A stretch of 64,000 bases of DNA from Chloracidobacterium sp. (GTDB lineage Bacteria; Acidobacteriota; Blastocatellia; Pyrinomonadales; Pyrinomonadaceae): positions 547 to 64,546 of the forward strand of contig JANYIL010000258.1 in the NCBI GenBank assembly GCA_025362075.1, in the 5' to 3' direction. The translations under genes and the position numbers were made by a program. This document shows positions 15,235-50,597 of the stretch, one piece after another. Under the pieces are notes generated by a model that worked only from the letters and a program-made list of their open reading frames with translations, ran no database searches and had not been told where the DNA came from. Positions within the stretch are counted from its first letter, which is position 1, and each line of letters begins with the position of its first letter.

Positions 15235-15243
15235 GGCAACCGT

Positions 15244-19506: not shown

Positions 19507-19537
19507 AAAAAAGAAAAGCGGCCCGTGGGGGCCGCTT
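19507..19537 (-). terminator. Intrinsic terminator copy attached to the tRNA fragment
   Basis: The minus strand reads AAGCGGCCC-CCAC-GGGCCGCTT followed by TTCTTTTTT. Confidence 0.6.
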
Positions 19538-19632
19538 GGATTATGAGGTAAGTATATTTATTTACTGCGGTTTATAGTGGAGCCGCCCAAGAGATTCGAA
19601 CTCTCGACCTTTCGATTACGAGTCGAAATGCA
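19511..19632. repeat. Left direct repeat (att-like): terminator + spacer + 3' half of tRNA-Thr
   Basis: It aligns with 50475-50597. The core is a 76-bp perfect match (19546-19621 = 50511-50586). The flanks carry a few substitutions and one 1-nt indel. Confidence 0.9.
19578..19632 (-). pseudogene. Truncated tRNA-Thr copy (anticodon arm to CCA end only; no 5' acceptor strand or D arm)
   Basis: Identical to the 3' ~44 nt of the tRNA at 50543-50618. Similarity is lost 5' of the anticodon stem. Confidence 0.85.
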
Positions 19633-20191
19633 CGCCGACTCACCACACGTCAGCAGTACACCCCCGTGTGTCAAGTATATAATCACTGAAATATTTAAGG
19701 GTTGAAATTGGTCGCCGAATTGGGGCATAGCTGTCACGGGCGGCGTCGATTCCCAACTTAAAATCCATGAAATGTAGTCACGTAGATTTCCCTTACCCTT
19801 TGCAGATGACAACGTAAGCGAGTCACCAATATTAAGGTGTTTTATTAAAGAAGTGCTTCGATTAGTGTTGTGAAACACCATTCGCAGGCTAGTGGCAATG
19901 CGTATTGCCTCATCTTCATGCCCCGCATCCTAAGCGGAACATGAACGCAGTATAAAGCCAATCTGTTCGACTAGCTTTGTGCTGAATCGTTCGTAATCTG
20001 GACTAAACTTGGGCATCTAACGAAAGTGTAGCCGCATAAAATACTCTTCGCAAAGAGTGTAACCACAGGCGCGTGATCGTTTGACGCTAATCAATTACCC
20101 AACATTCGTTCTTGTCAATTTCTGCCCTAAACGGAAATTCCGACATTGTATCTTCTACCTGTACAAATCTTGGTAGACCTTTATTCACTAG

Positions 20192-20410
20192 ACGGACTTC
20201 CCTTTTCTAGACCTGATCATGCCAAAAATGGGCGGCAGCGAATTGAGGGAAGAGATTGTTAACATAAGGCCCGCTATAAAACTATTGTTCATGTCCGGCT
20301 ACACCGGGGATTGTATGGTAAAGACATAGCGATGCCGTCAGGTTCGCCATTTATCGAGAAACCCTTCACGCCTGACGAACTGGTTAGCAAGGTTCGTGAA
20401 ATACTAATGG
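20192..20410 (+). pseudogene. Response-regulator receiver-domain remnant (N-terminally truncated, frameshifted)
   Basis: Frame A reads TDFPFLDLIMPKMGGSELREEIVNIRPAIKLLFMSGYTGD, then stops. Frame B continues GKDIAMPSGSPFIEKPFTPDELVSKVREIL. The region before the phospho-acceptor Asp is absent. Confidence 0.7.
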
Positions 20411-20611
20411 CCGGCGATTCATCATCCGCACGGCTGATGAAGATCTGTCGCGCATCCACGCTTCCAGGGCTGCCCACGGCCGGTAACGCGTTCTCCCATA
20501 AACTTGCGTCAACTTGGCAACCATTATAGTCCAGGCTTTTTGGCTCATTTGCATTCGGTAATGCCGGTTTTATGGAAATGTGCCTCGACTCCCACTTTTA
20601 CATACCTGCAT

Positions 20612-23600
20612 ATGCGGTCACAAGCGATTTCAGTCACCAACAGCGGTACCTTCACCGAAAGGTTAGAGGTTCTTTCGCCCGTCAAACGAGCGCTTCTGGA
20701 AAAAAGGCTCGGCAGGGCCCTACCCGGAGGTAATCCATTTCAGATCACGAGACGCGCCCCCGGTTCGACGGCCCCTCTGTCTTTTAGCCAGGAAGGGCTG
20801 CTCTTTATGGAGCAGCTTGAGCCGGAAACATCAAGATACAACGTATATGAGGCGATCCGGCTAAATGGCCGGTTGGATCGAACTATTCTCCAGCAGACGC
20901 TCGATGACATCGTAGCGCGGCACGAGGCGTTGCGGACGGTGTTCGAGAACGCGGGGGACGGTTGGCAGCAGGTAATCCAGCCCGCTAGTGCTGCAAGCGT
21001 AAAGCATCTCGATCTAAGGACATCTTGTGAAGGCGTCGATGCGATAGACCTCCTCCAGAAAGAGGCTGACACGCCCGTAGATATTTACCGGGGGCCGATA
21101 TTTTCAGCGCTGCTCGTAACTGCGGATGACGATGAGAGTTATCTTCTTATCAAGATGCACCACATCTTGAGCGACGGATGGTCGCTGGGCATCTATTGGA
21201 AAGAGTTCGCTGAAATATACTCTGCTCGCTCGCAAAATAGGCCCGCAGCTCTCGGCGCTCTACCGATACAATTCGGCGATTACGCAGCCTGGTCCCGTCA
21301 ATACCTGCAACGAGAGATCGATCGCCAAACAGAGTACTGGAAAAAGCAGATTGATGGATCACCCGCATTGCTCGAATTGCCCACCGACCGTCCACGCCCG
21401 GCCCTACAGACGGCAAAAGGCGCTCAGGAGTCCGTGACCTTCCCCAGAGAATTGCTCGACCGGGTAAACGAGCTTTGCAAACGCGAGGGATGCACGCTTT
21501 ACATGGCACTACTTGCGGGTTTCGACGCTTGTCTCGCGAGATACACGGACACAGAAGATCTGGTCGTTGGAACGCCGATTGCGGGACGGAGCAGGACCGA
21601 GATCGAGAATCTCGTCGGTTATTTTGTCAACACATTGCCGCTCCGAACCGACATGTCCGGCGACCCGACGTTTCGAGACCTGTTAGGACGAGTACGAGGT
21701 GCGGTGCTCGACGCGTTTTCACATCAGGACGTGCCGTTCGAACACGTGGTCGCTGCCGTAAAACCTGAGCGCAGCCTCAGCTACAACCCTATTTATCAGG
21801 TAGCGTTTGCCCTACAAGAAAGGAGACGGTCGGCGGTCAGCCTTCCGGGACTCGATGTTACGCCGGTCGAGTTGCAGCTCTCAACCTCTAAGTTCGATCT
21901 TTTTCTCTCCGCGCAAGAAGCGTCTGACGGACTCAACATCACGGTCGAATACAGTACCGACCTTTTCGACCGCGAGACCATTCAAAGATTTATCGCGCAT
22001 TACCAGAACCTGCTGGCGTCGGCTACTAACGCTCCGGAACTCCGCCTCTCTCAGATGGAACTGCTGAGTCAGGAGGAGCGGCGTCAATTGCTGACAGAGT
22101 GGAACCAGACGAGGACAGGCTACCCGAAAGAAGCTATCCACCACATATTTGCCGCTCAGTGCGAAGCATATCCTGTGCAGATCGCCGTCGCAGCGTCCGA
22201 TGAAATGTGGACCTACCGGGAGATGAACGAATGGTCAAATCGCATAGCCAATCACCTGGTCAATCTCGGGGTCGGGGCCGGCCAGCGGATAGGTATCTGT
22301 ATGGACCGGTCGCCGCTGATGATAGCCGCCATTCTGGGCGTCCTGAAATGTGGGGCGGCCTACGTTCCGATGGACACCGCAAATCCGGCATTCCGGCTCC
22401 AACAGATGGTCGCCGACGCAGAGCTGACGATCATTCTAACCTGCACTGAACACATCGCCTTAGTTTCCCAAACGCCCGTAACTGCCATTGATGTCGACGC
22501 TGAAAAAGATGCTGTCGATTCGTGCAGCAGCGTCTTCATTTCCAAAGACCGTGCATCTGATGATGATACGGCTTGTATTCTCTACACTTCAGGTTCCACA
22601 GGTCGTCCAAAAGGCGTGATGATACCGCACCGCGCAATAAGCCGTCTGGTGCGCAACACCAACTATATTGAGATAAATCGAGACGATCGTTTTGCTCACG
22701 TCGCAAACGTCGCCTTTGACCTGGCGATATTCGACATCTGGGGAGCTCTCCTCAACGGAGCGCGAACTGTCATTATCCCAAAAGACATAGTTCTTTTGCC
22801 CGAACGTTTTTCAGCCGAGGTAAAGGCGTCCGGTGTGACGACCATTTGTCTGGCAACGTCGCTCTTTCACCTGATAGCCAGAGAGAAGCCGGATGCTTTC
22901 TCGTCCGTGCAAACGCTCATAGTCGCAGGCGAAGCGTTTGACCCGGCAGCCGCACGCCAGATACTTGCATCGAACCCTCCGCAACGGCTGCTGAACGGCT
23001 ACGGGCCAACGGAATCAACCACATTTGCGACATGGAAACTCATCGACGAAGCGGCGGCGAACGAGCCGAGTCTGTCTATTGGACAGCCGGTGTCAAACAC
23101 CACGATTTTTATTCTCGACGACGATTTGAACCTGGTTCCGATCGGGGTCGCGGGCGAAGTATTTATCGGCGGTGACGGGCTCGCGACCGGTTATCTCAAC
23201 CGACCGGAGCTGAATGAGGAGAGATTTGTTAGCATCCCCTTCCAAAAGTTCCCGGACGATGCGGAAGCCGCCGAGAGCATACGGCTCTATCGCACCGGCG
23301 ACCTGGCCCGTTATCGAGCTAATGGCGAAATAGATTACATCGGACGTAAAGACAATCAGGTTAAGCTCAGGGGCTTTCGCATCGAGTTGGGTGAGATCGA
23401 GGCCATCATAGAAGCACATCGGGGCGTAGCCGAGGCAGTGGTGCTGGCAATAAAAGATTCGAATGATCACCGCCTGGCAGCTTATTACGTGGCGTCGAGC
23501 GGTGCCAAAATTTCGCCGGACGAATTGCGGAGCTATCTGCGTGAAAACCTGCCCCATTACATGGTACCGGTTTCGCTGAACGAACTGGCGGCAATGCCGC

Positions 23601-24778
23601 TTAACGGAAATGGCAAGATAGACCGGCAGCGGCTGGCCTCTCAGGTGATCGTATCGCAGCCTGTTCACGACCAGACGGAGAAGCCAAAGAATGAACTTCA
23701 GATAAAACTGACATGGATATGGCAAAAAGTACTTGGCTTGTCGTCCATCGGCATACAGGACAATTTCTTTGATCTCGGCGGCCACTCGCTTGCGGCTGTA
23801 CGCGTATTTTCAGAGATCGAGAGTGCTCTCGGCTGTCGGCTGCCGTTGGCCACTCTTTTTAAAGCACCGACGATCGAACAACTTTCAGAGTTGATCGAGG
23901 GCAGTGATTGGCGGTCAAGCTGGGCGTCAATCGTCCCGATGCGCACCGGTGGCAGCAAGCCGCCTTTCTTCTGCATCCATGCCGTCGGTGGAAACATTCT
24001 CGAGTATAACGATCTGGCAAGAAATTTAGGTCCGGACCAGCCATTTTACGGGCTACAGTCGATCGGGCTCGATGGCCGCTCGGCGCCACTTACAGATTTA
24101 GGTGCAATGGCTGATGCCTACGTCAAAGAAATTCGCAAGATTCAGCCCGTAGGCCCCTACTATCTGGGAGGCCGCTCCTTCGGTGGAACGGTTGCGTATG
24201 AAATGGCGCGACGTCTCTACGCGGAAGGTCAGGAGGTTGCGCTGCTCGCGATTTTCGACAGCTATCCCAAAGGGTGGCTCAAGCGCTTTAGCCAGGATGA
24301 GGCCCACGCGTACAGGCGTCAGTTTTTGAAGATGCGGGCGCAGCGGCATTTACAGCTTTGGATTGGTTTGAGTCTGGCAGACAAGTTTCGTTACGGTTGG
24401 ACAAAATTGGGGTACAAGAGCCGTAAATTGCGAAACATCGTTTGGCAGGTATCGCATGCGATCCGCCCCGCCACGGAGTCCGTAAGCAGCACCGTCCGCA
24501 ACATCGAGGAGATCAACTATCTGGCGATCAAGAGCTATGTGCCTGAGATCTACGATGGAAAAGTCACGTTCTTTAGCGCAGGCGAGGAAGTTTGCCCGGA
24601 AGAAAATTTGACGGGCTGGCGTGTGCTCGCAACGGGCGGTGTAGATGTCGTGGGCGTACCCGGTGATCATCAGACCATGATCAAGGAGCCGCATGTTGGC
24701 GATCTTGCCCGACTTTTGGAAGACGCAATCGGCCGGACGAGCGGGATCAAATCGCCCGAGACGGGAGGCGAAAAATGA
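20612..24778 (+). CDS. NRPS termination module C-A-T-TE
   Basis: C3 motif HHILSDG (21158-21178). A3 motif ILYTSGSTGRPKGVM (22577-22621). A8 and A10 motifs RTGDLARY...KLRGFRIELGEIE and NGKIDR. Carrier motif FFDLGGHS (Ser codon 23786). Thioesterase GGRSFGG (Ser 24176) and GDHQTM. The start is uncertain (20504, 20561 or 20612). Confidence 0.9.
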   Translation: MRSQAISVTNSGTFTERLEVLSPVKRALLEKRLGRALPGGNPFQITRRAPGSTAPLSFSQEGLLFMEQLEPETSRYNVYEAIRLNGRLDRTILQQTLDDIVARHEALRTVFENAGDGWQQVIQPASAASVKHLDLRTSCEGVDAIDLLQKEADTPVDIYRGPIFSALLVTADDDESYLLIKMHHILSDGWSLGIYWKEFAEIYSARSQNRPAALGALPIQFGDYAAWSRQYLQREIDRQTEYWKKQIDGSPALLELPTDRPRPALQTAKGAQESVTFPRELLDRVNELCKREGCTLYMALLAGFDACLARYTDTEDLVVGTPIAGRSRTEIENLVGYFVNTLPLRTDMSGDPTFRDLLGRVRGAVLDAFSHQDVPFEHVVAAVKPERSLSYNPIYQVAFALQERRRSAVSLPGLDVTPVELQLSTSKFDLFLSAQEASDGLNITVEYSTDLFDRETIQRFIAHYQNLLASATNAPELRLSQMELLSQEERRQLLTEWNQTRTGYPKEAIHHIFAAQCEAYPVQIAVAASDEMWTYREMNEWSNRIANHLVNLGVGAGQRIGICMDRSPLMIAAILGVLKCGAAYVPMDTANPAFRLQQMVADAELTIILTCTEHIALVSQTPVTAIDVDAEKDAVDSCSSVFISKDRASDDDTACILYTSGSTGRPKGVMIPHRAISRLVRNTNYIEINRDDRFAHVANVAFDLAIFDIWGALLNGARTVIIPKDIVLLPERFSAEVKASGVTTICLATSLFHLIAREKPDAFSSVQTLIVAGEAFDPAAARQILASNPPQRLLNGYGPTESTTFATWKLIDEAAANEPSLSIGQPVSNTTIFILDDDLNLVPIGVAGEVFIGGDGLATGYLNRPELNEERFVSIPFQKFPDDAEAAESIRLYRTGDLARYRANGEIDYIGRKDNQVKLRGFRIELGEIEAIIEAHRGVAEAVVLAIKDSNDHRLAAYYVASSGAKISPDELRSYLRENLPHYMVPVSLNELAAMPLNGNGKIDRQRLASQVIVSQPVHDQTEKPKNELQIKLTWIWQKVLGLSSIGIQDNFFDLGGHSLAAVRVFSEIESALGCRLPLATLFKAPTIEQLSELIEGSDWRSSWASIVPMRTGGSKPPFFCIHAVGGNILEYNDLARNLGPDQPFYGLQSIGLDGRSAPLTDLGAMADAYVKEIRKIQPVGPYYLGGRSFGGTVAYEMARRLYAEGQEVALLAIFDSYPKGWLKRFSQDEAHAYRRQFLKMRAQRHLQLWIGLSLADKFRYGWTKLGYKSRKLRNIVWQVSHAIRPATESVSSTVRNIEEINYLAIKSYVPEIYDGKVTFFSAGEEVCPEENLTGWRVLATGGVDVVGVPGDHQTMIKEPHVGDLARLLEDAIGRTSGIKSPETGGEK

Positions 24779-25620
24779 TATTTCCCGGTCTGGCGGCGAT
24801 CCTGGCACAGAGTGACTGGATCCTGAATGCCAACAATTATCTCTATCACGCGCTCAACAATCTGGCGGGCCAGTCATTTGTGTTTGACCGGCTACTCGGC
24901 CTCGGCTTGAGCAGCAATCTTGTCAAAGCGGCAATCATCGGTGCGTGCTTCATGCTGGCATGGCTGTCCGGTGCCGACGAGTCAATTACAGCAGCACGGC
25001 GAAAGATACTGCTCATAACGCTTGTGTCGTCCGTATTGGTTCTGGCGGCGACGAAAACCGTTACAAAATACGTTTTTCTTCCACGGCCCTACGTTCTCTC
25101 TGAACGTAGCTTTCATCTTAATGACCGCCAGTTAGTCGAGACTCCGCAGGTGGACTTTCGGGTGCCTTTTGACGAGGAAACCGAAAAAAACTATCACGAG
25201 TTACAGCAGGGCGAGATCATATCCAACGATCTCACTTCGTTTCCGAGCGACCATGCGGGTTTCTTCGTCTGTATAGCTCTCGGCATTTTTCTGGCGTATC
25301 GAACCGTCGGAACCCTGGCGCTGCTATGGACTATTTTCGTACCCCTTGCAGCCAAGGTGATCCTTGGTCAGCATTCTCCTCTGGACATTGTCGTAGGAGC
25401 CGGAATTGGTGCCGTGATCCTGCTGTTGACGCAGTTAGTCGCAGGCCGCTGGGCCGGCCGCGTATTCGACCCGGCCGTCAAATGGACGATGAACAACTCT
25501 GCACTATCAGCGGCACTGTTATTCATCGTCCTGTTCGAGGTTACCAACACGCTTGATGACGTTCGTCAGGTCGGAAAAGTCGGAAAGGAACTTGCCAAAC
25601 ACATGTTGGGCAAGCAATAA
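24775..25620 (+). CDS. PAP2-family lipid phosphate phosphatase (membrane)
   Basis: The ATGA overlap with the NRPS stop indicates coupling. PAP2 motifs are LPRPY, FPSDHAG and GQHSPLDIVVG. Several TM helices are present. Confidence 0.75.
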   Translation: MIFPGLAAILAQSDWILNANNYLYHALNNLAGQSFVFDRLLGLGLSSNLVKAAIIGACFMLAWLSGADESITAARRKILLITLVSSVLVLAATKTVTKYVFLPRPYVLSERSFHLNDRQLVETPQVDFRVPFDEETEKNYHELQQGEIISNDLTSFPSDHAGFFVCIALGIFLAYRTVGTLALLWTIFVPLAAKVILGQHSPLDIVVGAGIGAVILLLTQLVAGRWAGRVFDPAVKWTMNNSALSAALLFIVLFEVTNTLDDVRQVGKVGKELAKHMLGKQ

Positions 25621-25626
25621 GTTTTT

Positions 25627-26532
25627 ATGCCAAGAAAGAACCTCAAGAGAATACTACTCGCGACGATTGTCCTGGCGGTGGGATTCGTCGGCGGTGGGTG
25701 CGGTCTTGATCAAAAGGGAATGGTACTTTTTACCGACCCATCGTACCGCGCCAGCGTCGTCGGTACGGATCGCGACGGTTTTACGGTGCCCGACGGTATT
25801 CTGTGGTACCAGGGCCGCTTTCTGATTGCGGACGAGGGTGGCTCTGCTTTCCGTATCTGGAGCGGGCCAGGTCATGTAGTGACGCTTTGCGACAGCAAGA
25901 TCGGTGTCATGTCGCCTGAGGATATGGCCATAGACCCCGTTGGGAACATCTATTTTACGGATGATGACGCGGGTGGCGTTTGGAAGATCAACAACTTCGG
26001 CGAAACGAAACAACTGGTCGGTAAGGATAAAGGCCTCATTTCAACAGAAGGTATCGTGCTGGCGCCAGACGGTAATCTGCTGGTTGGAGACGGCGAATCT
26101 CACAAGGTCTTTACCGTCACGCCCGATGGCGCCGTTTCGGAGTTTTTGGGTGCTGACTCTGGCATCAGCAAAGCAGAAAGCATGGCGTTCGACGAAAAGG
26201 GCGACCTTTTTATCGCCGACAATGAGGATAAAGTCCTATATCTGCTTACGCCCGACAAAAAGCTCCATCGCCTGATCGCGAATCGGGACGGATTTTCACC
26301 TGAGACGATCTGGTACTCAAAGGGTGTTCTCTACATCACGGACAGTCAGGACGGGAAACTCTTTAAGTACACTGCCGAGGATGGGCTGAACGTAATCGCG
26401 GTTTTTGGTGGCAAGCTCCACGCTGTGAACGGCGTCACGACCGACGATAACGGGGCGATTTACGTCTCAATACAGACCGATCTGGTAAAAAAGATCGGGT
26501 ACCTTATAAAGATCGAGCAGGACCGGCCTTAA
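25627..26532 (+). CDS. Six-bladed beta-propeller lipoprotein (NHL / SMP-30-like repeats)
   Basis: Signal peptide with a Cys (LAVGFVGGGC). Six repeats of the P(D/E)G(I/M)..D..G.(L/I)(Y/F)(I/V)(A/T)D type. Confidence 0.7.
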   Translation: MPRKNLKRILLATIVLAVGFVGGGCGLDQKGMVLFTDPSYRASVVGTDRDGFTVPDGILWYQGRFLIADEGGSAFRIWSGPGHVVTLCDSKIGVMSPEDMAIDPVGNIYFTDDDAGGVWKINNFGETKQLVGKDKGLISTEGIVLAPDGNLLVGDGESHKVFTVTPDGAVSEFLGADSGISKAESMAFDEKGDLFIADNEDKVLYLLTPDKKLHRLIANRDGFSPETIWYSKGVLYITDSQDGKLFKYTAEDGLNVIAVFGGKLHAVNGVTTDDNGAIYVSIQTDLVKKIGYLIKIEQDRP

Positions 26533-26684
26533 AGCATTCTCGCCATTAATCTTCCCCGCTTTACACGTATCCGCCGGACGCCGAGAAAATTCTTGAAACT
26601 CGGCGTTATTCGGCCTTTCTTTAAGTCTGGTTACACGTCTGTCTAATGGTCAGATGTTGCGCGCATTTTAAGATACGCCCTTTG

Positions 26685-29600
26685 ATGAAGAAAAACGTCG
26701 CCATCATTTTTCTGGCTAACGCCTTTACCCTGGTATCCGGTCTGGTCACGGGTCTTTTGACCGCATGGGCACTCGGACCCGAGGGACGAGGTGATCTGGC
26801 CGTGGTGGTCCTCTATCCAAACATCGTGGCTCTCGCAGCCGGGCTCGGAATGGCGCAGGCGACGCGGTATTTTGTTGCCAACCGGCCACGGCAGACGTCA
26901 ATGCTTTTTTCAAATGCCCTCTGTTTTGCGGGCATCGTGGGTTTTGCCGCATTTTTGATCGCCGAGTTGGTTATCCCCAACCTGATAGGCACGCGGAGCG
27001 AAGCAGTAATATGGCTGGTCAAGGCGTATCTCATCAACATTCCGTTCGCTCTGCTGTATGACGTGATGATTGCCACCCTGGAGGGCGCGCGTCGATTCAG
27101 ATGGGCCGCGGTTTCGAAAATACTCTTTTTCGGTATCCAATCCGGCGCTTATCTCGTCCTATGGTTCACGGGCCATCTGACCGTCTATAGTGCCGCAGCG
27201 ACGATGGTCGTTGCACAACTTGCAAACACAACGACCGCGCTTATATGCGTTTTACTGGCCCTAAGACCTCGCTGGAGGCCCAGTCCTCGGGTCTTTAAAA
27301 GGACGCTCCGTTTTGGTTTGAAGTATTACGTAGGTGTCGTCACCTCTTTCACAACCCTGCGATTGGACCAGATGATGCTCGCCGGCATGGCGACAAGCGT
27401 GGAGCTGGGGCTTTATGTAATTGCCGTCCGGTTGTCAGAAGTAATGACCCTGCTGGCATCTTCAGTGAGTGACGTGCTCATGCCGGAGGTTGCGTCATCG
27501 AGCGGTTCCGATCGCTCGCTCAAAATCCTGACGCGGAGTCTGCGACAGACGATGTATGTCTACTTGATCCTCCTGCTGCCGCTTGTCGCTGCATCGCCGC
27601 TAGTCCTGAGCTATGGGTTTGGAAGCGATTTTATCGCTGCCGCACCTGCATTGCGTATTTTGCTGGTCGGATCAATGGTCTGGAGCGCGGCGGCGATCAT
27701 CAATAGCGGGCTGAACGGACTTGGTTATGCGGGGCTGACCACGATTTCCCGATTGAGCTCCGCGGTTATTACAGTGCTGACGCTGCTCGTTTGGCTGCCG
27801 AAATACGGCATCGTCGGAGCTGCCCTATCGTCGCTTGCGGGCTACAGCGCAATGTTCGTATTTGCATTATTTTGGCTTATTCGGAAAGAGAAACTTCGGT
27901 TTTCCGACATTTTCCGCCCACATCACGAAGATTTTGCTATGAAAAAATTGGTCTCATTTTTACGTCCATCGACCGATGTTGAACCGTTGTTTGTCGAGCA
28001 GTTGTTCGAGAATCAGGCCGCCGAAAACCCGGATCACATTGCCGTCGTTTCAAAGACCGGCCAGATCACCTACGGCGAACTGAACCGCAAGGCCAACCAG
28101 CTAGCCTGGTTTCTAAAGTCGCGGGGCGCCGGACCGGAAACCCTGGTTCCGATCACTGTAGACCGCTCGGCCGACATGGCGATCGGGATTCTCGGCATTC
28201 TCAAATCGGGCGCCGCGTTTGTTCCGATCGATCCGGGGTACCCGCAGGAGCGGATCGACTTCATGCTCGCGGATACAGAAGCTCCATTGATTGTGACACA
28301 AAAAGATCTTCTCGCGTCGTGTAGGACAGAGAGGATTTGCCTGGATGAAGACTGGCCCCAGATTAGCGAATTTCCCGAAGAAAACCCGCCATTGTCGGGG
28401 TCGGCAGAAGATCTGGCGTACGTGATCTACACATCCGGTTCCACCGGTAAGCCGAAGGGCGTGATGCTCACGAGGGGGAACCTGCGACATTATGTCCACG
28501 CTCTGCAAAGCGAATTTCGGTTAACGCGAGACGATACGTATCTGCATCTGGCGTCGATCGGGTTTTCGTCATCGAGACGGCATCTGCTGCTGCCGCTCGC
28601 CTTTGGAGCCAGCGTTGTCATCGCCGACGAATACGAGCGGCTGGACCCGTTGCCTCTCTTTGAGCTGATAAAAGGGCGGCATGTCACTGTCTTTGACGCG
28701 GTTCCTTCTTTCCAGCGGCATTGTCTAAACGCACTGCTCGAACTTGATACGCCCGTGAGGGACGCTTTAATCGACAACCTCCTTCGCCTGATCGTTTCAG
28801 CGAGCGAGCCGCTGTACTCCGACATTCCCCGCGCGTGGATGATCGAATTCAGGCATCCCGCCGAGCACATTCACATGATCGGGCAAACAGAAACCAGCGG
28901 GATAGTTTCTCTTGGCCGCCTGACCGAAGCCGATGTCACCGGCGATGTGCGAACGGCCCCGGTGGGCCTGCCCATTGCTAATACCGACATCGTGCTACTG
29001 GGAGACGATTCTAAACCTGTCGCTGACGGGGAACGCGGAGAAATCTACGTGAGCGGGGCCGGCGTCGGCCGTGGCTATCTCCGCCATCCGGAACTGACCG
29101 CCGAGAAATTCGTCGAACTTTCGATCGATGACGGACCCGTCGTCAGATATTGTAGAACCGGAGATCATGCCAAAAGGATGCCGGACGGCAGATTCGAGTG
29201 CCTCGGGCGCAGTGATTTTCAGATAAAGATCCGCGGGAACCGGGTCGAGCTAAGCGAGATCGAAGTTCTATTTCTCGGCCATCGTCAGGTACGTGAATGT
29301 GCTGTGATCGGTCGTAAAGATGAGCCGGGCGAGGTGCGGCTGGTCGCATACGTCGTTCCCGTGGGGAATGAAACGCTTCTCCCGGATGACCTGCGCGGTC
29401 TCGCGGAAACTTCACTACCCGATTACATGCAGCCTGCGGTCTTCGTTTTATTGGACAAGATGCCGCTCACGCCAAACGGTAAAGTAGATCGAAAGGCACT
29501 CCCGGCTCCGGATCAAGCCGTGCGGACGACCCCATTGGCCAGCCATGAGGCCGGGACGCCGCTGCCAGCAGCTATCGAGGCGATCTGGTGCGAGATACTC

Positions 29601-38226: not shown

Positions 38227-38241
38227 AAAACTACAATCCCA

Positions 38242-42440: not shown

Positions 42441-42441
42441 T

Positions 42442-43080: not shown

Positions 43081-43094
43081 TGCGTTTCTTCCCG

Positions 43095-45269
43095 TCATGG
43101 GGTGGTTACGTTCAGGGCAAAATCGTCTAACACGAACGATGTTTTTAGACTCGAGTCTTCGACGCCGACGAAATAAATTTGTATGGTCTGGCCTTTGTAC
43201 GCCAACAGATTAAGCGCGACCTGCGAGTAGCCTGGGGCCGAGTCAAGATTTGAATAGGTAGCCATCGTAGCGAGCACCGTCCCCGAAGAGTTCCGAATCT
43301 GAAGCTTTAACGTGTCGTAGCCTGCCGTCGTTGTCGTCTCGGTCGTGTCGATGTGCCGCCAAAACGTCAGCGTGGCTGCCGTAGCTGCCGATGGAATCGA
43401 GACTTGCTGATAAAGAGTGTCCGTATGAACCGAACCGTACCCGTTCAGCCACGCTGTCCAACTACCCGAATGCGCGGCCTCAAACGCGGAGAGGTTGTTT
43501 ATCACGCCGCTGGTAACCACCCAGGGAGCAGGGCTCGCCGAGCCGTTCTCGAAACCAGTGTTGCCCAGCATCTGCGTCGTCGTCGGGCCTCCCCCTGATG
43601 CGGTCACGGTGACGGAAATACTTGCCGTCCGGTTTAGCCCTCCGCCCGATGCGGTGATCGTCACCGGATAAGTGCCCGCCGGAGTCGCCGTTGTCGCGGA
43701 CAGCGTAAGAACAGAAATACCTGACCCGGGGCTGGCGATAACCGCCGGATTGAAAACAGCAGTCGTCCCGGCCGGAACACCCGTCACTGCTAACCAAACC
43801 GCCGAGTTGAATCCGCCCGATACCGTCGAAGTTATGGTTGAGCTTGCCGAGGCGCCGTGCTGCACGCTCAGCGACAAAGGTGATGCGGAAATTGCCAGAT
43901 TCGGGTTTGTCGCTTCCGGAGTCGTGACATTCAGCGAAAAATCGTCTACGAGAAAAGATGTTTTTGCCGAGCTATTCTCTACGCCGATCAGATAAACCTG
44001 AATGGTCTGGCCTCGATAGGCAAACACATCGACCATCAACTGCGAGTAGCCTGCTGCCGCATTCAGGTTTGAGTATGTGGCAAGCGTGGTCAGCACCGTC
44101 CCAGTCGAATTTCGCAGTTGGACCTTTAGCGTATCGTTCGCCTTTGTTTTTGTTGTCTCGGCGGTATCAACATGCAGCCAGAACGACAGCTTTGCGGCAG
44201 CAGCATCCGCCGGGATACTCGCCTGCTGAAGCAGGGTATCCGTATGCGTCGCCCCAAAACCGTTGAGCCAGGCTTTCCATGAACCGGATCGCGGTGCCTG
44301 GAAAGTCGAGTTATCGATCACCCCGGATGTAGCGGTCCAGGGGGCAGGATTGGCGCCGTTTTCAAAGCCCGGGTTTCCCAATAGTTGCTGCGTTCCCCCG
44401 CCGGCCGATGTTATAGTCAACGTGACGTTCGTCGAGCGGGTTTGCGCTCCATCGGTGGCACTGATTAGCACGTTGTACGTGCCAGTCGGGGTACTTGGTC
44501 CAGTAGAAAGAGTTAGCGTCGTTGAGCCTAGTCCCGGCGGCGGAATCGTTTGTGGATCGAATGTAGGCGTAACCCCGGATGGCAGACCCGTAGCCGAGAA
44601 ATTCAAGCTTGAATTGAAGCCATTGGATATCGATGTATTTATAGTGACCGCCGGACTGTCGCCCTGTATAGCCGTAATGGACGAGGCCGATGGTGTGAGC
44701 GAGAATGTCGGACCAAAGGCGATGTCGATGATCGGGTGCAGTTCGATGCCATTGGGGGCGATGCCTTCCTGACCTTCGTTGTAGTCAAAAAAACCGACGC
44801 CGGTGATAACGACCGGCACGGACGCCGTTTTGAAACTCGACGTAGCGGTAAACATAGCGTCAAATTGCGCCCGCGCATGAGCAATTCCCAAACGAAAGCC
44901 GCTGTTTAAGCTAACGCAGCCGGGATCGGGAATTTCACCGATCATCGTCCGGCCCGCCGCGTCCTGAAATACAATATGGTAATCAGCGTCGTACGATTTG
45001 ACGTATTTGATCAGGGTCGCATTTAGTGTCCAGGTAGTTATTTCGGCCGGCTGGATCCGGTTGTTGTCAGGCAGGGTAGTCGGCTTCGGCAGCGATCTGA
45101 GACTGTCGATCGATGTAGAGTTGACGGAATTTAGGTTTACAAGGGCCGCATCTGCATCGATCCCCGTTTTTACATTCCACCTTTCCCCGCTGCATTGGGC
45201 GATCACGGCCGCCGGCAGACAGAGTCCAGCCAGGAAGCACGCCAATATCAATCCACGGACTAATCTCAT
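43095..45269 (-). CDS. Secreted protein: unknown N-terminal domain + two tandem ~265-aa (Ig-like + jelly-roll-like) units
   Basis: Signal peptide ...PAAVIAQC. The N-domain has ERWNVKT...DADYHIVF...IELHPIIDI. Unit 1 (~aa 188-451) and unit 2 (~aa 452-724) align along their full length, for example LLGNPGFENGANPAPW / MLGNTGFENGSASPAPW and VDDFSLNVTTP / LDDFALNVTTP. Confidence 0.7.
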   Translation of the reverse strand: MRLVRGLILACFLAGLCLPAAVIAQCSGERWNVKTGIDADAALVNLNSVNSTSIDSLRSLPKPTTLPDNNRIQPAEITTWTLNATLIKYVKSYDADYHIVFQDAAGRTMIGEIPDPGCVSLNSGFRLGIAHARAQFDAMFTATSSFKTASVPVVITGVGFFDYNEGQEGIAPNGIELHPIIDIAFGPTFSLTPSASSITAIQGDSPAVTINTSISNGFNSSLNFSATGLPSGVTPTFDPQTIPPPGLGSTTLTLSTGPSTPTGTYNVLISATDGAQTRSTNVTLTITSAGGGTQQLLGNPGFENGANPAPWTATSGVIDNSTFQAPRSGSWKAWLNGFGATHTDTLLQQASIPADAAAAKLSFWLHVDTAETTKTKANDTLKVQLRNSTGTVLTTLATYSNLNAAAGYSQLMVDVFAYRGQTIQVYLIGVENSSAKTSFLVDDFSLNVTTPEATNPNLAISASPLSLSVQHGASASSTITSTVSGGFNSAVWLAVTGVPAGTTAVFNPAVIASPGSGISVLTLSATTATPAGTYPVTITASGGGLNRTASISVTVTASGGGPTTTQMLGNTGFENGSASPAPWVVTSGVINNLSAFEAAHSGSWTAWLNGYGSVHTDTLYQQVSIPSAATAATLTFWRHIDTTETTTTAGYDTLKLQIRNSSGTVLATMATYSNLDSAPGYSQVALNLLAYKGQTIQIYFVGVEDSSLKTSFVLDDFALNVTTP

Positions 45270-45460
45270 AAGGTTCGTCTTCTGCTCACACTAAGGTTTC
45301 ACAGTCAAACTTGATCCTAAAGTAGGTACACGTGTCTAAATGTAGAATCGACCCCGGCTTCCAAAAATCTCGCTTTTGGTCAGCTCGGCTGGCGGTGAAA
45401 GTGGAGACGGGCAAAGATTAGACCTTTATCGGAGCAAGGTATATTGTCAGGATATTTTCG

Positions 45461-46495
45461 ATGACCGCTATGAAAGCTCTAATTCTTGCCGGAGGCCAGG
45501 GAACGCGGCTTCGCCCGTTGACCACATACACGCCTAAGCCAATAGTGCCGCTCGTAAATCGGCCGTTCGCCCTCTATCAGATTGAGTTGCTTCGACGCTC
45601 AGGTATCACCGACATAACTTTTTCGCTCAACTATCAGCCTGAGAAAATCGAGCAGACTCTCGGCGATGGCAGCAAATACGGGGTCAGGATACGTTACATA
45701 TGTGAGCCGAGTCCGATGGGTACGGGCGGGGCCTTTAGGTTCGCGATGGAGGGCTCGGACGAGCCTACCGTTGTATTAAACGGGGACATTTTGACGGATC
45801 TGCGGCTCTCTGACCTTATCGACTTTCATCAGGCGAATAACGCGCGTGTTTCCATAGGTCTCGCCCGCGTTTCCGACCCAAGCCGCTATGGCGTCGCGGA
45901 ACTGGACGTGTCGGGTCGCGTGTTGAGATTTATCGAGAAGCCCCAGGGGAAAGTTACTCCAAACACGATCAATGCCGGCATTTACATTATCGAGCCTTCG
46001 GTGCTCGAAACAATACCGGAGCGTGAAAACCGGTCGTTCGAGTACGACGTTTTCCCCAAACTGTTGGAGCAGAAAGAGCGTTTCTACGGGTATGTGATGG
46101 AAAACGCCTACTGGCGCGACATTGGAACGCTCGAAAGCTATCTGGCCGCACACCTGGATTACCTCGCTGGCCGACTAGCCCGTTTCGAATTAGAGGATCA
46201 AGGCCCTGCGACAGCGGCGCATTCCGGCGTCGACGCGGCATCGGTAATTGGCGAGGACTGCATCATTCAACCCGGTGTCGAGATAGTTAATTCGGTCATA
46301 GGGCCCGGTGTACATATTGAAGAAAAGGCCTCAGTTAAACACTCGGTCATCTGGTCGCACTCAAGAGTCGCGATCTCGGCCGACATACAGCATTCCCTCA
46401 TCGGACAGAGCTGCCACATAGGCCGTAATGCAAGGGTACGCCGGGGATCGGCACTTGGCGACAGAGCACATCTGCCGGACTATACAGTGGTCTGA
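45461..46495 (+). CDS. NDP-sugar pyrophosphorylase (mannose-1-P guanylyl- / glucose-1-P nucleotidyl-transferase family) with C-terminal LbH domain
   Basis: KALILAGGQGTRLRPLTTYTPKPIVPL, followed by hexapeptide-repeat-like VIGEDCIIQPGVEIVNSVIGPGVHIEE. Confidence 0.85.
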   Translation: MTAMKALILAGGQGTRLRPLTTYTPKPIVPLVNRPFALYQIELLRRSGITDITFSLNYQPEKIEQTLGDGSKYGVRIRYICEPSPMGTGGAFRFAMEGSDEPTVVLNGDILTDLRLSDLIDFHQANNARVSIGLARVSDPSRYGVAELDVSGRVLRFIEKPQGKVTPNTINAGIYIIEPSVLETIPERENRSFEYDVFPKLLEQKERFYGYVMENAYWRDIGTLESYLAAHLDYLAGRLARFELEDQGPATAAHSGVDAASVIGEDCIIQPGVEIVNSVIGPGVHIEEKASVKHSVIWSHSRVAISADIQHSLIGQSCHIGRNARVRRGSALGDRAHLPDYTVV

Positions 46496-46792
46496 TCTCA
46501 GGTATTTTGCACATAGCATATTGGCCGTGTGAGAGATTTCTCATACCGTCATACTTCAGGCAAAAACTTTGATATTCCTACCTGATCAAATGAAACAGCC
46601 GCGCACAGTATGATTTTTCGCATGATTACGATCTTATAACATCGCGCTCCTCGTAATCTATGCCGAGACCGTTTTCCAATGCTCTCCGGTTTTTACGTAA
46701 ACATCTATAGCGGCTCACCCCGTTTACCGTATCCTTTCCCGTCCATAAACCGGTCGCCTTAACGAGAGCGACGTTATCATATATCCGTACGT

Positions 46793-47122
46793 TTACTTCC
46801 TTGCACTAGCGATCACGGCGAGACTCCCGATGCCATCTGTACGTGCGTGGTAACCGTCGGCGGTAAGGGCCGCGCTGCCCATTTCCTTCCCGACCTTGAT
46901 ACGAAAGATCGTAACCCGTTCATTGCCGAGAAAGCCGACGAGACCGCCGACCGCAACTACCCAGAGGTATGTAACCTCGCGAGGATGAAAGAAGCGGTAT
47001 ATTGACTCGTAACCCGCAAAGGCCGCGCTCGCGAGAATTGTCAGAACGACGATGAGTCCTGCAAGGTCTTCGACGCGTCCAAATCCATAGGTGAATCGCT
47101 TGCTCGCCTTTCGATTGCTCAA
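46793..47122 (-). pseudogene. Cation-diffusion-facilitator (CDF) transporter fragment
   Basis: FTYGFGRVEDLAGL...SAALTADGYHARTDGIGSLAV corresponds to central CDF helices. The N-terminal helices and the whole C-terminal half are missing. Confidence 0.6.
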
Positions 47123-47487
47123 CAGAAAAGCAATGCCAAGCGGGAGCCCAACAGGAATTTCAATATAAATCTTTAGGAATATAAGAATTTAAACTCTTCT
47201 CTTAGTTCTTATATTTCTTTATTCTTACAATTTCTTTTAAGATTCCGTCACCTTAGCCGAGCGTCGTCCGAGGTGACACTCGGCGATATTGTATGACACA
47301 AAAGTCACCACATGATATTGGGGTGTCTAGACGGTGTGTTTCTTCATACCGTGTGTGGTCTAGTGACACTCGGACGAAACCCCCGTAAACACTGGCCAGG
47401 CCGCTGAAATCGACGCGAATATGGCCCCCTTAGCGGTGATTTTTCAAAATTTTTCACCACTAATTTGATTGAAAACTGCTGCCGTTT

Positions 47488-47600
47488 CCGCTATGGGAAA
47501 ATAGGTGCCGGCCGAAGGCCGTGCGACTTTGTTTTTCACGTTCCGTTCCCATAAATTTCCACCCAGATCTACGACCCTCGAGCTACCCGCTACGGGAAAG
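47488..47600. repeat. Iteron-like short repeats CCGCTAYGGGAAA (2 direct, 1 partial inverted)
   Basis: ccgctatgggaaa (~47488), ttcccataa (inverted, ~47546) and cccgctacgggaaag (~47586), within a 1.2-kb gene-free stretch near the RepA-like gene. Confidence 0.35.
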
Positions 47601-48010
47601 AGGGACCTCCGACTTGATCATCCACGCCTCCCACTCCGAAGGGCCATTGGCGATAATTTTTCCGGACATTAACCCCTGATCCCCGGATTTCGCTGTCAGT
47701 TTAGGGGTATAGGGGTATGTTTTTTAGAACCAACCTTTACGGCGTTTTTGATGCCTGCTCCGAATGCGTCTGATAATAACCATTAGGTTAAAGAGTCGGT
47801 GGCTACTTTATGTTCCGGCAGTCTCTTACACGTGAGAGATAGTCAAGCGGACACGGAGCTACACGATGCAACACAATTATGCAACGCCTTTCCTGGCATC
47901 GTAACAAACGATCGTCGAGAACAAACGTAGCCGCAACTATAACTAACACAGTAGGTTACGTGGAATCGCAGCCGATTTTTTTCGATTAATCGAATGGCTC
48001 TTAAAAAATT

Positions 48011-48153
48011 AACACAACACAACAGAGACAAAGCGAAAAATTACATAAGTATTATGCTATGGCATCCGCTAGCGGAAATTGGAACTGATTCTGTCGATAG
48101 TTGTTCGAGAACGAGAGGTATCAGAAAATCTCGGTTTGCTGTTGTGTTGTGTT
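48011..48153. repeat. Perfect 15-bp inverted repeat (AACACAACACAACAG ... CTGTTGTGTTGTGTT) separated by 113 nt
   Basis: Read directly from the sequence. It lies ~170 nt downstream of the RepA-like gene's stop. Confidence 0.6.
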
Positions 48154-48325
48154 TACGCTTCTGCATCGCCGAACCTTGATCTTTAGGTGCCATCAAATGC
48201 TAACTGCCATCCCGGATCCCGTAGAATAATAGAAAGGTCTAATTATTCAACCTCAAGGCAGAATAATTAGACCTCTTTTCTACTTTAATCGAAGTGCAAA
48301 AGTGTACTAACTATAAAGGCTTACA

Positions 48326-49435
48326 CTATTGCACTTTCTGATAAACGCCATGACATACTTTGACTACTGTACCTAGCTCGACCGCCCGTTTGAGCTCGTT
48401 TTTAACAGTCCGACCCAGGATCTGATCGCTCAATTTGCCTATAAGTTCTCCAGTCTTATAGGTGTGCTCTCCTTCAAACGATGAAAGAAGTTTCTGATAA
48501 GCTGATTCTACCTCGAGCTTTTGGGCAATGGGCCTCAGCCAACGGCTTTCCGCTCCGATCTGAAAGGTTGTATCGACGAACTGTTCACCTTTTACCTTGC
48601 CGCATTCTAGTTTTACCGAGTTTGTTTTCTCGTTGAACTCGAGATTCATAATCAGGTCACTGTGATCCGCAAAACAACTTGCCCCACGTCCTTTCTGGCT
48701 TTTTTCTCTGGGGGATTTGTAGTCCAGGCCTTTCTTTCCCATGTGATGGGTAGCAAGCAACGCAGAATCCGTATCTCTCGCCAAACGACGAAGAGGATTC
48801 ATGATCTTATTCTTGATTTCCGCGTTGTCGTTCTCGTTCTCTATTCGCATGGCGGAGGAAATCGTATCAACGATGATGAGATCGGGCCCAAATTCCCGAA
48901 GCCTATGCGTGATCAGCTCTCGGTGAGCGGGGTCAGAGAGGGAAAAACAGGATCCGGTCCGGTCCTGTTCTTCGCAAAAGATCAGTGCATTCTTATCAAG
49001 TAATTCATGCTCATACTCAGTTAACCCGGAAGCCATGGTCAACAAATCCGATTGTAACCGGATCTTATTGTCTTCGAAATCGAGCAAGGCGACCTTGTGA
49101 GGATGAGATTTGCAAAGGATTGGGGCAAATCCTTTGCCAGTACAGAGGCTGATCAAAAGATTTCGGCACAATGTGGATTTGTTGCCGTTCGTTATAGCAT
49201 TTAACATACCCACGTAGCCTCTCGCCAAGCCGAAAATGATCGGTTCAAACGGCGGCAACTTCAGCGATCGAAAATTTGCAAACGTTACGCCAACCGAATA
49301 ATTCTTCGGGTCGCCATCTGCGGAAAGGTGATTGGGATTTATATTGTGGGAAGTGACCTGTGTGGTCCGGTTCATATTTGTGTTCATATTTTGTGGAAGT
49401 TCTCCTTGAGATTTTGTGTCGTGCCGGTTCGGCAA
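48326..49435 (-). CDS. RepA-like RecA-fold ATPase (AAA_25-like), mobile-element replication/helicase-type protein
   Basis: GMLNAITNGNKSTL is a Walker A-like motif with Asn in place of the last Gly. DLIIVDTISS is Walker B. LLATHHMGKKG is also present. The TTG start is uncertain. Confidence 0.6.
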   Translation of the reverse strand: MPNRHDTKSQGELPQNMNTNMNRTTQVTSHNINPNHLSADGDPKNYSVGVTFANFRSLKLPPFEPIIFGLARGYVGMLNAITNGNKSTLCRNLLISLCTGKGFAPILCKSHPHKVALLDFEDNKIRLQSDLLTMASGLTEYEHELLDKNALIFCEEQDRTGSCFSLSDPAHRELITHRLREFGPDLIIVDTISSAMRIENENDNAEIKNKIMNPLRRLARDTDSALLATHHMGKKGLDYKSPREKSQKGRGASCFADHSDLIMNLEFNEKTNSVKLECGKVKGEQFVDTTFQIGAESRWLRPIAQKLEVESAYQKLLSSFEGEHTYKTGELIGKLSDQILGRTVKNELKRAVELGTVVKVCHGVYQKVQ

Positions 49436-49527
49436 GGCACGACAGATTAAAGACGGTTAACGGGGATTGGACCAGATCGAAATGGAGGTTTCCAACCTTC
49501 ATCGCGATCCGCCATGTTTCGGGTTAT

Positions 49528-49785
49528 TTAGGAATTCGCGACGGCGTATCGTTCGCGAGACGCTAAATAGTCAGTGAGATTTTTTAGCGTATAAACGACT
49601 CGGACACCTCCGACACGCGAGAAAGATACCTCGCCCCGTAATCGGATACGTTGGGGCGTTATCCGGCTTACTCTGAGCCAATCTGCGGCTTCGGGTTCGG
49701 TAAGGACCTGTGGGAATTTAGTTGAGATGCTTCTCAGTGTATCCGTAGAAGAAGCGGCGGGCGGACATAAGAAATTATCAATCAT
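49528..49785 (-). CDS. Excisionase/MerR-type HTH small DNA-binding protein
   Basis: VLTEPEAADWLRVSRITPQRIRLRGEVSFSRVGGVRVVYTLKNLTDYL fits the excisionase-family HTH pattern. Confidence 0.55.
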   Translation of the reverse strand: MIDNFLCPPAASSTDTLRSISTKFPQVLTEPEAADWLRVSRITPQRIRLRGEVSFSRVGGVRVVYTLKNLTDYLASRERYAVANS

Positions 49786-50470
49786 TCAAGTCTCCAATTG
49801 AGTGGGTGTATCTCTCGAAAGAGAATGAAACGAGACAAGACCGCAAATTGCAAGATAAACTATCTTCGCAAAATGCCTATTGTAGAAATTATTTTTATTT
49901 TATTTGTGAGATGTTAGGTTTGGGTGGTAGTTAGTTTTTTGGTAACTCACATTATTCATATAGTAGCGCAAACTTTGAATTTTTTTCAGCTCTGCGTGCC
50001 GATTTGGGCCGCATTCCGGTAGAGCTTTCGGCTCTTTCAGAGATAGACGAAAAATAATCACCTAATCGGGCGGACTCGGTTGAGGGCATATTAGCCCCGG
50101 CCGAGGTCTTGAGCCTATCTAATCGCGGTTCAAGACGCGGGCAGCGCGCGGGGTGGCCGTTACCCATGAAGCAGTCATGATTCCTTCGTCGGCTCATGTA
50201 CGGTCTGGTTTCGGCGTGGCGTTTCCGGAAATGGCGGGGTGGAGAAAGCCAATCCGGTCTGTCGTCGAAGAAATCCCGGCGTTGTAGATGAAAGATATTC
50301 GCGGCCTTACGCTCGCCCTGGGGCGGTACGGCCCAACGCGAGATCGTTGCGTCCCCTTGGCAAATCAGAATTCGAACGCTTTTAAATATTTCCGCCCGCA
50401 GATTCGCTTGTTCGCCTATTCAAAACTTTTGAAGAGTCAAAATGTGTGTAGAAATGTGTGCAGCAACTAC

Positions 50471-50501
50471 AAAAGAGAAAAGCGGCCTGTGGAGGCCGCT
50501 T
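50471..50501 (-). terminator. Intrinsic terminator of tRNA-Thr
   Basis: The minus strand reads AAGCGGCCT-CCAC-AGGCCGCTT followed by TTCTCTTTT. It lies 41 nt downstream of the tRNA 3' end. Confidence 0.7.
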
Positions 50502-50597
50502 AGGTTTATTAGGTAAGTATATTTATTTACTGCGGTTTATAGTGGAGCCGCCCAAGAGATTCGAACTCTCGACCTTTCGATTACGAATCGAATGCTC
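50475..50597. repeat. Right direct repeat (att-like) overlapping the intact tRNA-Thr
   Basis: Partner of 19511-19632, with a 76-bp perfect core. Confidence 0.9.

Follow-up and report, generated by a model that had tools for sequence, protein, structure and literature searches.

The window analysed here is a stretch of 64,000 nt from a Pyrinomonadales bacterium (Chloracidobacterium sp., assembly GCA_025362075.1, contig JANYIL010000258.1, positions 547 to 64,546 of the forward strand). It belongs to the Acidobacteriota, which are abundant in soils and sediments and poorly cultured, and in which gene exchange is little understood. In the middle of the window a block of genes for nonribosomal peptide synthetases (NRPS) and for an exopolysaccharide (EPS) pathway is enclosed by two segments with a low content of G and C (GC), and these in turn are enclosed by two direct repeats. 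The right-hand repeat lies in an intact gene for tRNA-Thr(CGU), and the left-hand repeat lies beside the gene of a CHASE2-type histidine kinase. The original prediction, made from the nucleotide sequence, was that the whole NRPS and EPS locus arrived horizontally as an integrative element, which entered the 3′ end of the tRNA gene and has since lost its integrase.

Results

Two repeats and one intact tRNA gene

When the window is compared with itself by BLAST, a direct repeat is found at 19506-19627 and 50470-50592, with 94.3% identity over 123 columns (E = 2e-47) and a start-to-start spacing of 30,965 bp; a MAFFT alignment agrees. Within the repeats runs an exact match of 76 bp, 19546-19621 in the left copy and 50511-50586 in the right, and a separate check for exact runs bears out the perfect core that had been predicted. 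To the right of the core the two copies differ by a G/A difference and an indel.

The tRNA-Thr gene sits on the minus strand, an orientation that the prediction had left unstated. The right-hand copy is intact: it extends from 50618 to 50543, is called as tRNA-Thr(CGU) by ARAGORN and scores 71.2 bits against the Rfam tRNA model. The left-hand copy, from 19654 to 19578, is also called tRNA-Thr by ARAGORN; it scores 25.5 bits, where the gathering score is 29 bits, lacks a D arm, has two broken acceptor pairs and gives no cloverleaf on folding. From the low score, the missing D arm and the missing cloverleaf it follows that the left copy is a 3′ fragment, which spans the anticodon arm to CCA, so that both copies and the terminator beyond the fragment are in the state that had been predicted. 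The 5′ part of the left copy reads as unrelated or degenerate sequence joined to this fragment.

Downstream of each tRNA copy a 9-bp hairpin of G and C is followed by a run of T (hairpins at 19516-19537 and 50480-50501), and the two stems differ by one compensatory change, from a C-G pair to a T-A pair. A compensated change of this kind means that the two repeat arms are homologous but of separate descent, and not the products of a fresh duplication. As an observation in its own right, the compensated pair suggests that both hairpins stayed functional while they diverged. The prediction had considered it unusual that the repeat reaches beyond the tRNA; this is not peculiar to the present locus, since a repeat in a related genome, described below, does the same.

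An empty site in a sister strain

The chromosomal flank downstream of the tRNA, outside the island, carries the gene of the histidine kinase (16742..19378, minus strand), in which Pfam finds CHASE2, PAS, HisKA and HATPase_c domains. Four sediment metagenomes (runs X1-X4) hold the island-bearing form of the window. Two freshwater-sediment metagenomes of another study (runs X5 and X6), in which 40% of the words sampled near the left junction occur, hold another form. In X5, a contig of 5783 nt with a depth of 9.4 covers 17500-19627 with 38 differences, none of them beyond 19292, and includes the left-type terminator. Over its final 94 nt, up to the last base, this contig agrees with the right copy (50506-50599) except for one mismatch, from which it follows that the contig continues as the true tRNA and not as the degenerate 5′ part. 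In X6 the same configuration is found on a contig of 952 nt, where the loose end before 50506 is the left-type terminator. On these contigs the intact-type tRNA reaches to about position 20, and the next contigs of both runs overlap and continue without mismatch over 50589-50845 and with ~96% identity over 50851-53396, at similar depth. Of the interval 19644-50503, X5 and X6 contain only short pieces at conserved NRPS or glycosyltransferase motifs, most of them 35-120 nt long and none above ~240 nt; while the flanks have a depth of 8-13, the island interval is without long contigs.

In a strain that is 96-98% identical to the window in the flanks, the kinase, the terminator, the tRNA-Thr gene and the flank on its other side thus appear contiguous, and the entire 31 kb is absent. 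This evidence is at the level of contigs, and its last link passes through the conserved tRNA. The junction of tRNA-Thr and CHASE2 kinase, by which the prediction could be checked, is in this way present in the X5 and X6 contigs. Two exact searches gave nothing: a 23-nt pattern across the tRNA end and the downstream DNA has no match in metagenome contigs, and a look-up of the kinase protein returned no record.

In the attachment site of the empty strain (attB), the left and the right repeat are each represented by their outer arm. This means that the crossover must fall inside the 76-bp core, and that the inner arms, i.e., the right-type terminator and the degenerate 5′ part of the tRNA, made up the attachment site of the island (attP). 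The distal att copy (19506..19632, minus strand) is accordingly composed of the displaced 3′ fragment of tRNA-Thr (19578-19632) and the chromosome's own terminator, of which the hairpin and the T run, to ~19507, are of the type found on the empty-site contigs. The proximal att copy (50470..50597, minus strand) is composed of the terminator supplied by the island, the core and the start of the chromosomal 5′ part of the tRNA, and the intact gene (50543..50618, minus strand) is the integration target, with a 3′ part that would have been regenerated by island sequence.

A local duplication of the tRNA-Thr gene, unrelated to the intervening DNA, would account for the fact that ARAGORN calls both copies tRNA-Thr. 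We judge it extremely improbable: the left copy is without the 5′ half of the tRNA, mobility genes adjoin the intact tRNA, and the empty site, which lacks exactly the inter-repeat DNA and one repeat copy, contradicts it. A more serious alternative is that the island is ancestral and was lost in the empty-site strain by homologous or site-specific recombination between the repeats. RecA-dependent deletion can act on a perfect repeat of 76 bp, the attB of X5 and X6 exactly matches the expected product of such a deletion, and the decay of the mobility genes described below (no integrase, gene fragments, a changed P-loop) argues for long residence. Loss of this kind, which deserves to be kept in mind although we think it rather unlikely, is nevertheless compatible with an origin as an island, and the differences between the arms (the compensated terminator and the degenerate 5′ part) are those expected of an attP and an attB of separate descent, not those of a local duplication.

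The reading that we prefer, with a probability of about 80%, is that 19633-50597 (30,965 bp) is a genomic island, inserted by site-specific recombination into the 3′ part of the tRNA-Thr(CGU) gene of this Pyrinomonadales bacterium. Under it, the island would have been gained by the lineage of the window rather than lost by the sister strain.

The NRPS and EPS cargo and the left end

The cargo occupies 20558..46514 and has been annotated with Pfam and NCBIfam. It starts with an NRPS of domain order C-A-T-TE (20612-24778), which is followed by PAP2 and NHL genes, a second NRPS gene (26646-33134) and the gene of a phosphopantetheinyl transferase (PPTase). After the PPTase come the EPS genes, i.e., Wzy_C, Bac_transf, Poly_export, a tyrosine-kinase-like gene, Wzz/GNVR and two glycosyltransferases of family GT4, and the locus ends with two open reading frames (ORFs) of unknown function, of 218 and 724 aa, and NTP_transferase. 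The second NRPS, on the plus strand, has an N-terminal Polysacc_synt_3 domain, a membrane domain of the flippase type, fused to A-T-C-A-T modules. The fusion is kept in a relative (2155 aa), and it suggests that decoration with a peptide or an acyl amino acid is coupled to polysaccharide export. The 724-aa protein has an internal duplication of ~470 nt with 67% identity (43099-43567 and 43918-44380, minus strand); its best-scoring homologues are 55-91% identical to it, and those with names are from Blastocatellia or Pyrinomonadaceae.

To the left of the cargo, the low-GC left end (19633..20557, GC 0.466) begins with the degenerate tRNA-like 5′ part (19633-19654). It contains the remnant of a response regulator on the plus strand (~20195-20415), frameshifted and N-terminally truncated, which matches positions 45-111 of 111 in the Response_reg profile; the truncated remnant of the original prediction is thus recognised as part of a receiver domain. 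The left end has no counterpart in the relatives compared.

The right end and the missing recombinase

The low-GC right end (46515..50474, minus strand, GC 0.470) is a decayed mobility backbone. Nearest to the cargo, ~280 bp from its right edge, lies a cation-efflux fragment (46793-47122, minus strand; Pfam), after which follow ~1.2 kb without ORFs, none in 47123-48325 being longer than 62 aa. Then comes the gene of a RepA/DnaB-like ATPase of family AAA_25 (48326-49375, minus strand; Pfam E = 6.5e-23), which PHROGs assigns to primase/helicase, and directly upstream of it an HTH_17-like gene (49528-49785, minus strand). The Pfam match of the latter is weak (E = 0.007); its product is 41% identical to the HTH_17 protein of a related element (L113, see below; E = 1e-6). 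These genes and gene fragments, together with a GC of 0.45-0.47 across 46.5-50.5 kb, agree with what had been noticed beside the tRNA. In the Walker A motif of the ATPase an asparagine replaces the glycine before the lysine (NGNKST, vs xGK[ST]T), the sole case among 20 aligned homologues, and this loss of the P-loop glycine would fit decay of the ATPase.

Between the HTH gene and the right repeat only 690 bp remain. A six-frame Pfam scan of 46500-50620 at E ≤ 1 gives Cation_efflux and AAA_25 and no recombinase, and Pfam searches of the island ORFs of at least 90 aa give neither a recombinase domain nor a relaxase or type IV secretion gene; in both scans, genes for capsid, packaging or helper interaction are likewise missing. 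With tblastn, the tyrosine integrases of two related elements (L080 and L113) and of the closest relative find no integrase remnant in the window, and two primase-like proteins of related elements find no match, and nothing resembling such a gene is seen at 47123-48325. A tblastx comparison of the non-coding island ends with all fetched loci gives no remnants of integrase or primase, and PHROGs searches with the AAA_25 protein, the HTH_17 protein and one ORF of 81 aa give no phage structural genes. In agreement with the prediction, no recombinase is detected, nor any degraded remnant of one.

Small integrative elements with the same backbone

Besides the window's own, the AAA_25 protein has 32 homologues at E ≤ 1e-10, which are 30-47% identical over the aligned part. 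At one locus in a Pyrinomonadaceae genome (L080) the order is att site, integrase, an ORF, HTH_17, AAA_25, DUF6371 and type I/IIG restriction-modification genes, in an element of 11.8 kb that is bounded by direct repeats of 20 nt (7520-7539 and 19318-19337) overlapping the start codon of lepA. At another (L113) the order is tRNA-Glu, integrase, HTH_17, DUF3854 (primase-like) and AAA_25. Seven of the related metagenome loci that were scanned have a tRNA gene no more than a few kb from the AAA_25 gene, and the tRNA is of a different kind in each; adjacency of the tRNA to the element itself was examined for L113 and one further locus (L112) only.

In this family an HTH_17 gene is thus found together with an AAA_25 gene, an integrase gene and a primase-like gene (DUF6371 or DUF3854), and the island has the first two of these and neither of the last two. 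Two of the four being absent, the integrase among them, the island is described as a decayed member. Since L080 and L113 have an integrase at the position where the window has 690 bp, loss of the integrase is supported. The two parts of the prediction that concern the backbone, i.e., integration at a tRNA 3′ end and subsequent loss of the integrase, draw support from the empty site and from this comparison.

The cargo in other genomes

The closest genome is a Pyrinomonadales metagenome-assembled genome, GCA_038227175.1, with 86% aa identity in the kinase and 82-87% nt identity in the flanks. It carries the cargo colinearly: one of its loci (L085) corresponds to 20568-34761 of the window at 79% identity, and another (L081) to 46514-33102 at 88%. 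In this genome the cargo is located elsewhere, in a unit of 26.6 kb at ~19.9-46.6 kb of the 240-kb contig JBBRPZ010000003.1. The unit is flanked by ABC-F, HAD, VWA and his genes at one edge, and at the opposite edge by an antitoxin, a sugar ABC transporter and gal genes. Direct repeats of ~149 bp with 85% identity (E = 1e-45) bound this unit, ~26.6 kb apart (L081 8296-8437 and L085 9641-9789). They consist of a tRNA(CAT)-like 3′ fragment, which was read by eye from the T arm, the acceptor strand and ACCA, and of ~95 nt past CCA; the fragment lies 167 bp to the left of the cargo and its twin just past the other end. Neither repeat copy is an intact tRNA, and Rfam did not recognise the fragment. 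Beside one of the repeats (L081 ~8347-8700) is the C-terminal half of a tyrosine recombinase, which matches positions 93-170 of 172 in Phage_integrase (E = 1.5e-14). The same NRPS and EPS block is thus found within a second unit that is bounded by tRNA fragments and has an integrase remnant, and mobility of the cargo is thereby supported.

In four genomes, each with different neighbouring genes, the cargo begins on its left at the same point, ~50-130 bp ahead of the first NRPS gene: at 20558 in the window, at 9957 in L085, at 685-723 in L084, where it adjoins a Usp-like gene, and at 2122-2167 in L166, where it adjoins a transporter. Inside the cargo L084 and L166 are 98% identical, and their flanks are different. 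In three further metagenomes (runs X7-X9) the EPS half of the cargo occurs at ~93-94% identity without the window's backbone.

Composition and the order of arrival

In 4-kb windows, the flanks have a GC of 0.55-0.56 and a tetranucleotide correlation with the flanks of 0.93-0.98, values that are slightly flattered, as the flank windows belong to the reference. For the cargo the GC is 0.545 and the correlation 0.84-0.93, for the right end 0.470 and 0.53, and for the left end 0.466 and 0.14. The two ends of the island resemble each other and not the cargo. The difference in composition that had been proposed as a check is thus distinct for both ends and only slight for the cargo, and since the cargo is nearly host-like, composition alone would not have revealed the island. 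A reading in which the cargo is native and only ~4 kb are foreign, as suggested by host-like GC and by a divergence equal to that of the core genes, was considered and dropped after the empty site and the att-bounded copy of the relative had been found.

To account for the contrast between ends and cargo, consider an origin in two steps, where tRNA-Thr initially received an element of the int / HTH_17 / AAA_25 type, ~10-15 kb long, and the NRPS and EPS block was inserted later, when recombination with another island or with chromosomal DNA replaced the middle of the element. The repeats would then mark the ends of the small element rather than the entry of the cargo. Such an origin, which we consider unlikely, would explain why the ends and the cargo contrast so sharply (GC 0.47 vs 0.545, correlation 0.14 and 0.53 vs 0.84-0.93), and why both ends contain broken genes, i.e., the cation-efflux fragment and the response-regulator remnant, which is truncated on its N-terminal side, facing away from the cargo. 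It also agrees with the size of the related elements, ~12 kb, with the occurrence of the cargo without the window's backbone in the relative and in X7-X9, and with the identical left edge in four contexts. However, the empty-site strain is without backbone and cargo alike, no backbone-only intermediate was found in any run, and the cargo of the relative itself fills an att-bounded unit with an integrase remnant, which makes carriage by integrative elements the simpler pattern. We infer that the island probably arrived in a single step. With regard to the prediction that the whole NRPS and EPS locus came as one integrative element, the origin as an island and the mobility of the cargo are supported, and backbone and cargo may have arrived jointly.

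Other features of the window

On the 5′ side of the tRNA, outside the island, lie a CI-like repressor gene and the gene of an ImmA/IrrE-type M78 protease (50978..52192, plus strand; Pfam and PHROGs). Such a pair is typical of mobile elements, yet it is present in the empty-site strain at ~96% identity.

In the closest of 13 relatives that carry the kinase (L006), a block with an ATP-dependent ligase and an AEP-primase-like gene and the kinase stand in the opposite order to that of the window: in L006 (6553-12628) the block precedes the kinase, and in the window (12684-19481) it trails the kinase. The two orders can be converted into each other by circularly permuting the two blocks, and homology to L006 ends at one of the breakpoints, 30 bp away from the left repeat. 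The kinase-X-S order of L006 and of a second relative (L007) is likewise inverted in the window.

An intergenic repeat of ~100 bp is dispersed over the window in both orientations, with 73-85% identity (10863-10951, 12548-12670, 50768-50889 and 63798-63900). It looks like a repetitive extragenic palindromic sequence or a miniature inverted-repeat transposable element, and one copy lies just upstream of tRNA-Thr. Further on are two tandem paralogous genes on the plus strand (53589-55508 and 55726-57612), which encode proteins of ~630-640 aa without a Pfam match and have 65-74% DNA identity over several segments.

Discussion

The island at tRNA-Thr can be understood in terms of the following scheme. 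The attP of the island would have resembled a whole, degenerate tRNA-Thr gene with a terminator of its own. A crossover in the 76 bp that it had in common with the chromosome would have regenerated the tRNA with a new terminator at 50.5 kb, and would have moved the 3′ fragment of the original gene, together with its terminator, to 19.5 kb, beside the kinase gene. The island would be composite, with two low-GC backbone ends enclosing a 26-kb cargo. The backbone may derive from small integrative elements with a tyrosine integrase, an HTH_17 protein (Xis/AlpA-like), a RepA/DnaB-like AAA_25 protein and a primase-like gene, and the cargo, which encodes a three-module NRPS, a PPTase and an EPS pathway, from related acidobacteria. 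Later, the integrase gene between the att site and the HTH gene would have been deleted, and other backbone genes would have been reduced to fragments and lost their function. With the integrase deleted and the backbone decayed, the island would now be fixed, unless a related integrase acts in trans.

Several observations weigh against the island reading. The divergence of the cargo from the closest relative (79-88% nt identity) equals that of the flanking core genes (82-87%), and the GC of the cargo is nearly host-like (0.545 vs 0.56); both would agree, too, with a cargo that has resided in the lineage for a long time. More than 5000 homologues were counted for the 724-aa EPS protein, and such EPS loci are therefore common across the clade. 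Among 13 more distant relatives, species-representative genomes with a kinase ortholog, none has a tRNA-Thr gene within 10 kb upstream of the kinase, and the empty site is accordingly known from sequencing runs only; moreover, contig data show presence better than absence. Furthermore, the island is without integrase, relaxase or any other detected transfer gene, and its mobility would therefore be historical. The Logan contigs, finally, were assembled from 31-mers and are interrupted at each repeat copy in the island-bearing runs, so that attL and attR cannot be distinguished there from attB and a circular attP, and the integrated topology rests solely on the 64.6-kb source contig, across an exact repeat of 76 bp.

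This last point leads to the possibility of an assembly artefact, where the chromosome has attB, the 31 kb form a separate circle with attP, and the assembler has threaded the circle into the chromosome through the 76-bp repeat. The Logan unitigs break at both copies, the unitig of the core has a depth of 19.4 as compared to ~10 elsewhere, and the k = 31 graph is identical under both topologies; the depth of the island equals that of the chromosome in the runs, which does not discriminate between an integrated and a circular form. An artefact is nonetheless improbable. The element lacks an integrase, and neither a replication initiator nor partition genes, by which it could persist as a plasmid, are recognisable in it. 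Reads of 100-150 nt span the 76-bp core and ordinary assemblers resolve such a repeat, and the island of the relative is integrated in a contig of 240 kb. Even if the artefact were real, the element would carry an attP for tRNA-Thr.

Returning to an island integrated at tRNA-Thr, one may ask whether it, or its cargo, still takes part in exchange. Either of two extensions can be imagined, and we think it doubtful that one of them is true. The island could still move as a passenger: it retains two att sites with a perfect core of 76 bp as well as an Xis-like HTH gene, and could be excised and transferred by an integrase that a related element provides from another place in the genome or in the community. 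Alternatively, the NRPS and EPS block may be a cassette that is exchanged among backbones and tRNA targets in Pyrinomonadales, as may be indicated by a left edge that four contexts share and by att pairs that derive from two different tRNAs. If the block is a cassette, a trait for a surface polymer and a lipopeptide-like product would spread among the acidobacteria of soils and sediments.

The significance of the island does not depend on these extensions. At a precisely defined tRNA site, strains of one species either have or lack a whole NRPS and EPS pathway, and the same pathway is found in a second unit, bounded by tRNA fragments, in a sister species, which is a concrete example of how biosynthetic traits and those for surface polymers move on integrative islands among Acidobacteriota. 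It also illustrates that islands without an integrase escape those island finders that depend on one.

Comparison with known systems

A search of the literature on this specific island found nothing. The elements closest to its backbone are those of the L080 and L113 type, the layout of which we take to resemble that of P4-type satellites and integrative mobilisable elements. The island is like them in that its AAA_25 protein is 43-46% identical to theirs, and in having an HTH gene directly upstream, a position adjacent to a tRNA and a low GC in comparison with the host. It is unlike them in that it has neither integrase nor primase-like gene, in that the P-loop glycine is replaced, and in that it carries a biosynthetic cargo of 26 kb, whereas the relatives examined are of ~12 kb with restriction-modification or small genes. 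The 26.6-kb unit of the closest relative has the same order of NRPS and EPS genes, long repeats made of a tRNA 3′ fragment and downstream DNA, and a degraded recombinase. In contrast to the island, its repeats are from a different tRNA (CAT, by eye), neither copy is an intact tRNA, its neighbours are different, and its integrase remnant abuts the cargo directly, without an HTH_17 / AAA_25 module.

The relaxase and type IV secretion genes that define integrative conjugative elements are not found among the scanned ORFs of the island, nor are the genes by which prophages and their satellites are recognised. Cis-mobilisable elements (CIMEs) of streptococci are islands flanked by att sites and without genes for recombination or transfer. 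With its two att-type repeats, its long perfect core and its lack of a recombinase of its own, the island is similar to a CIME; it differs in belonging to another phylum, and any mobilisation in trans by a partner element is hypothetical in its case.

The tRNA islands of the Islander and TIGER collections provide the closest parallel in site architecture. In these, a regenerated tRNA gene and a displaced fragment define the ends of the island (PMC4383910), and the Islander pipeline requires an integrase gene (PMC4383910), so that the present island, which has none, would fail its integrase filter. Two further features set it apart, i.e., a repeat that extends ~65-70 nt beyond the tRNA, with a terminator bearing a compensated stem change, and an attP side that retains a degenerate whole-tRNA shape. 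In other respects the architecture is shared: an intact tRNA marks one end and a displaced 3′ fragment, in direct orientation, the opposite end; identity extends from the anticodon loop, with the anticodon stem retained as well, to the 3′ end of the tRNA; the tRNA is restored by sequence from the island; and a conspecific genome lacks the island. In kind it is therefore an ordinary tRNA-associated genomic island, and its interest, a modest one, lies mainly in the strain-variable NRPS and EPS trait that it carries in a poorly known phylum.

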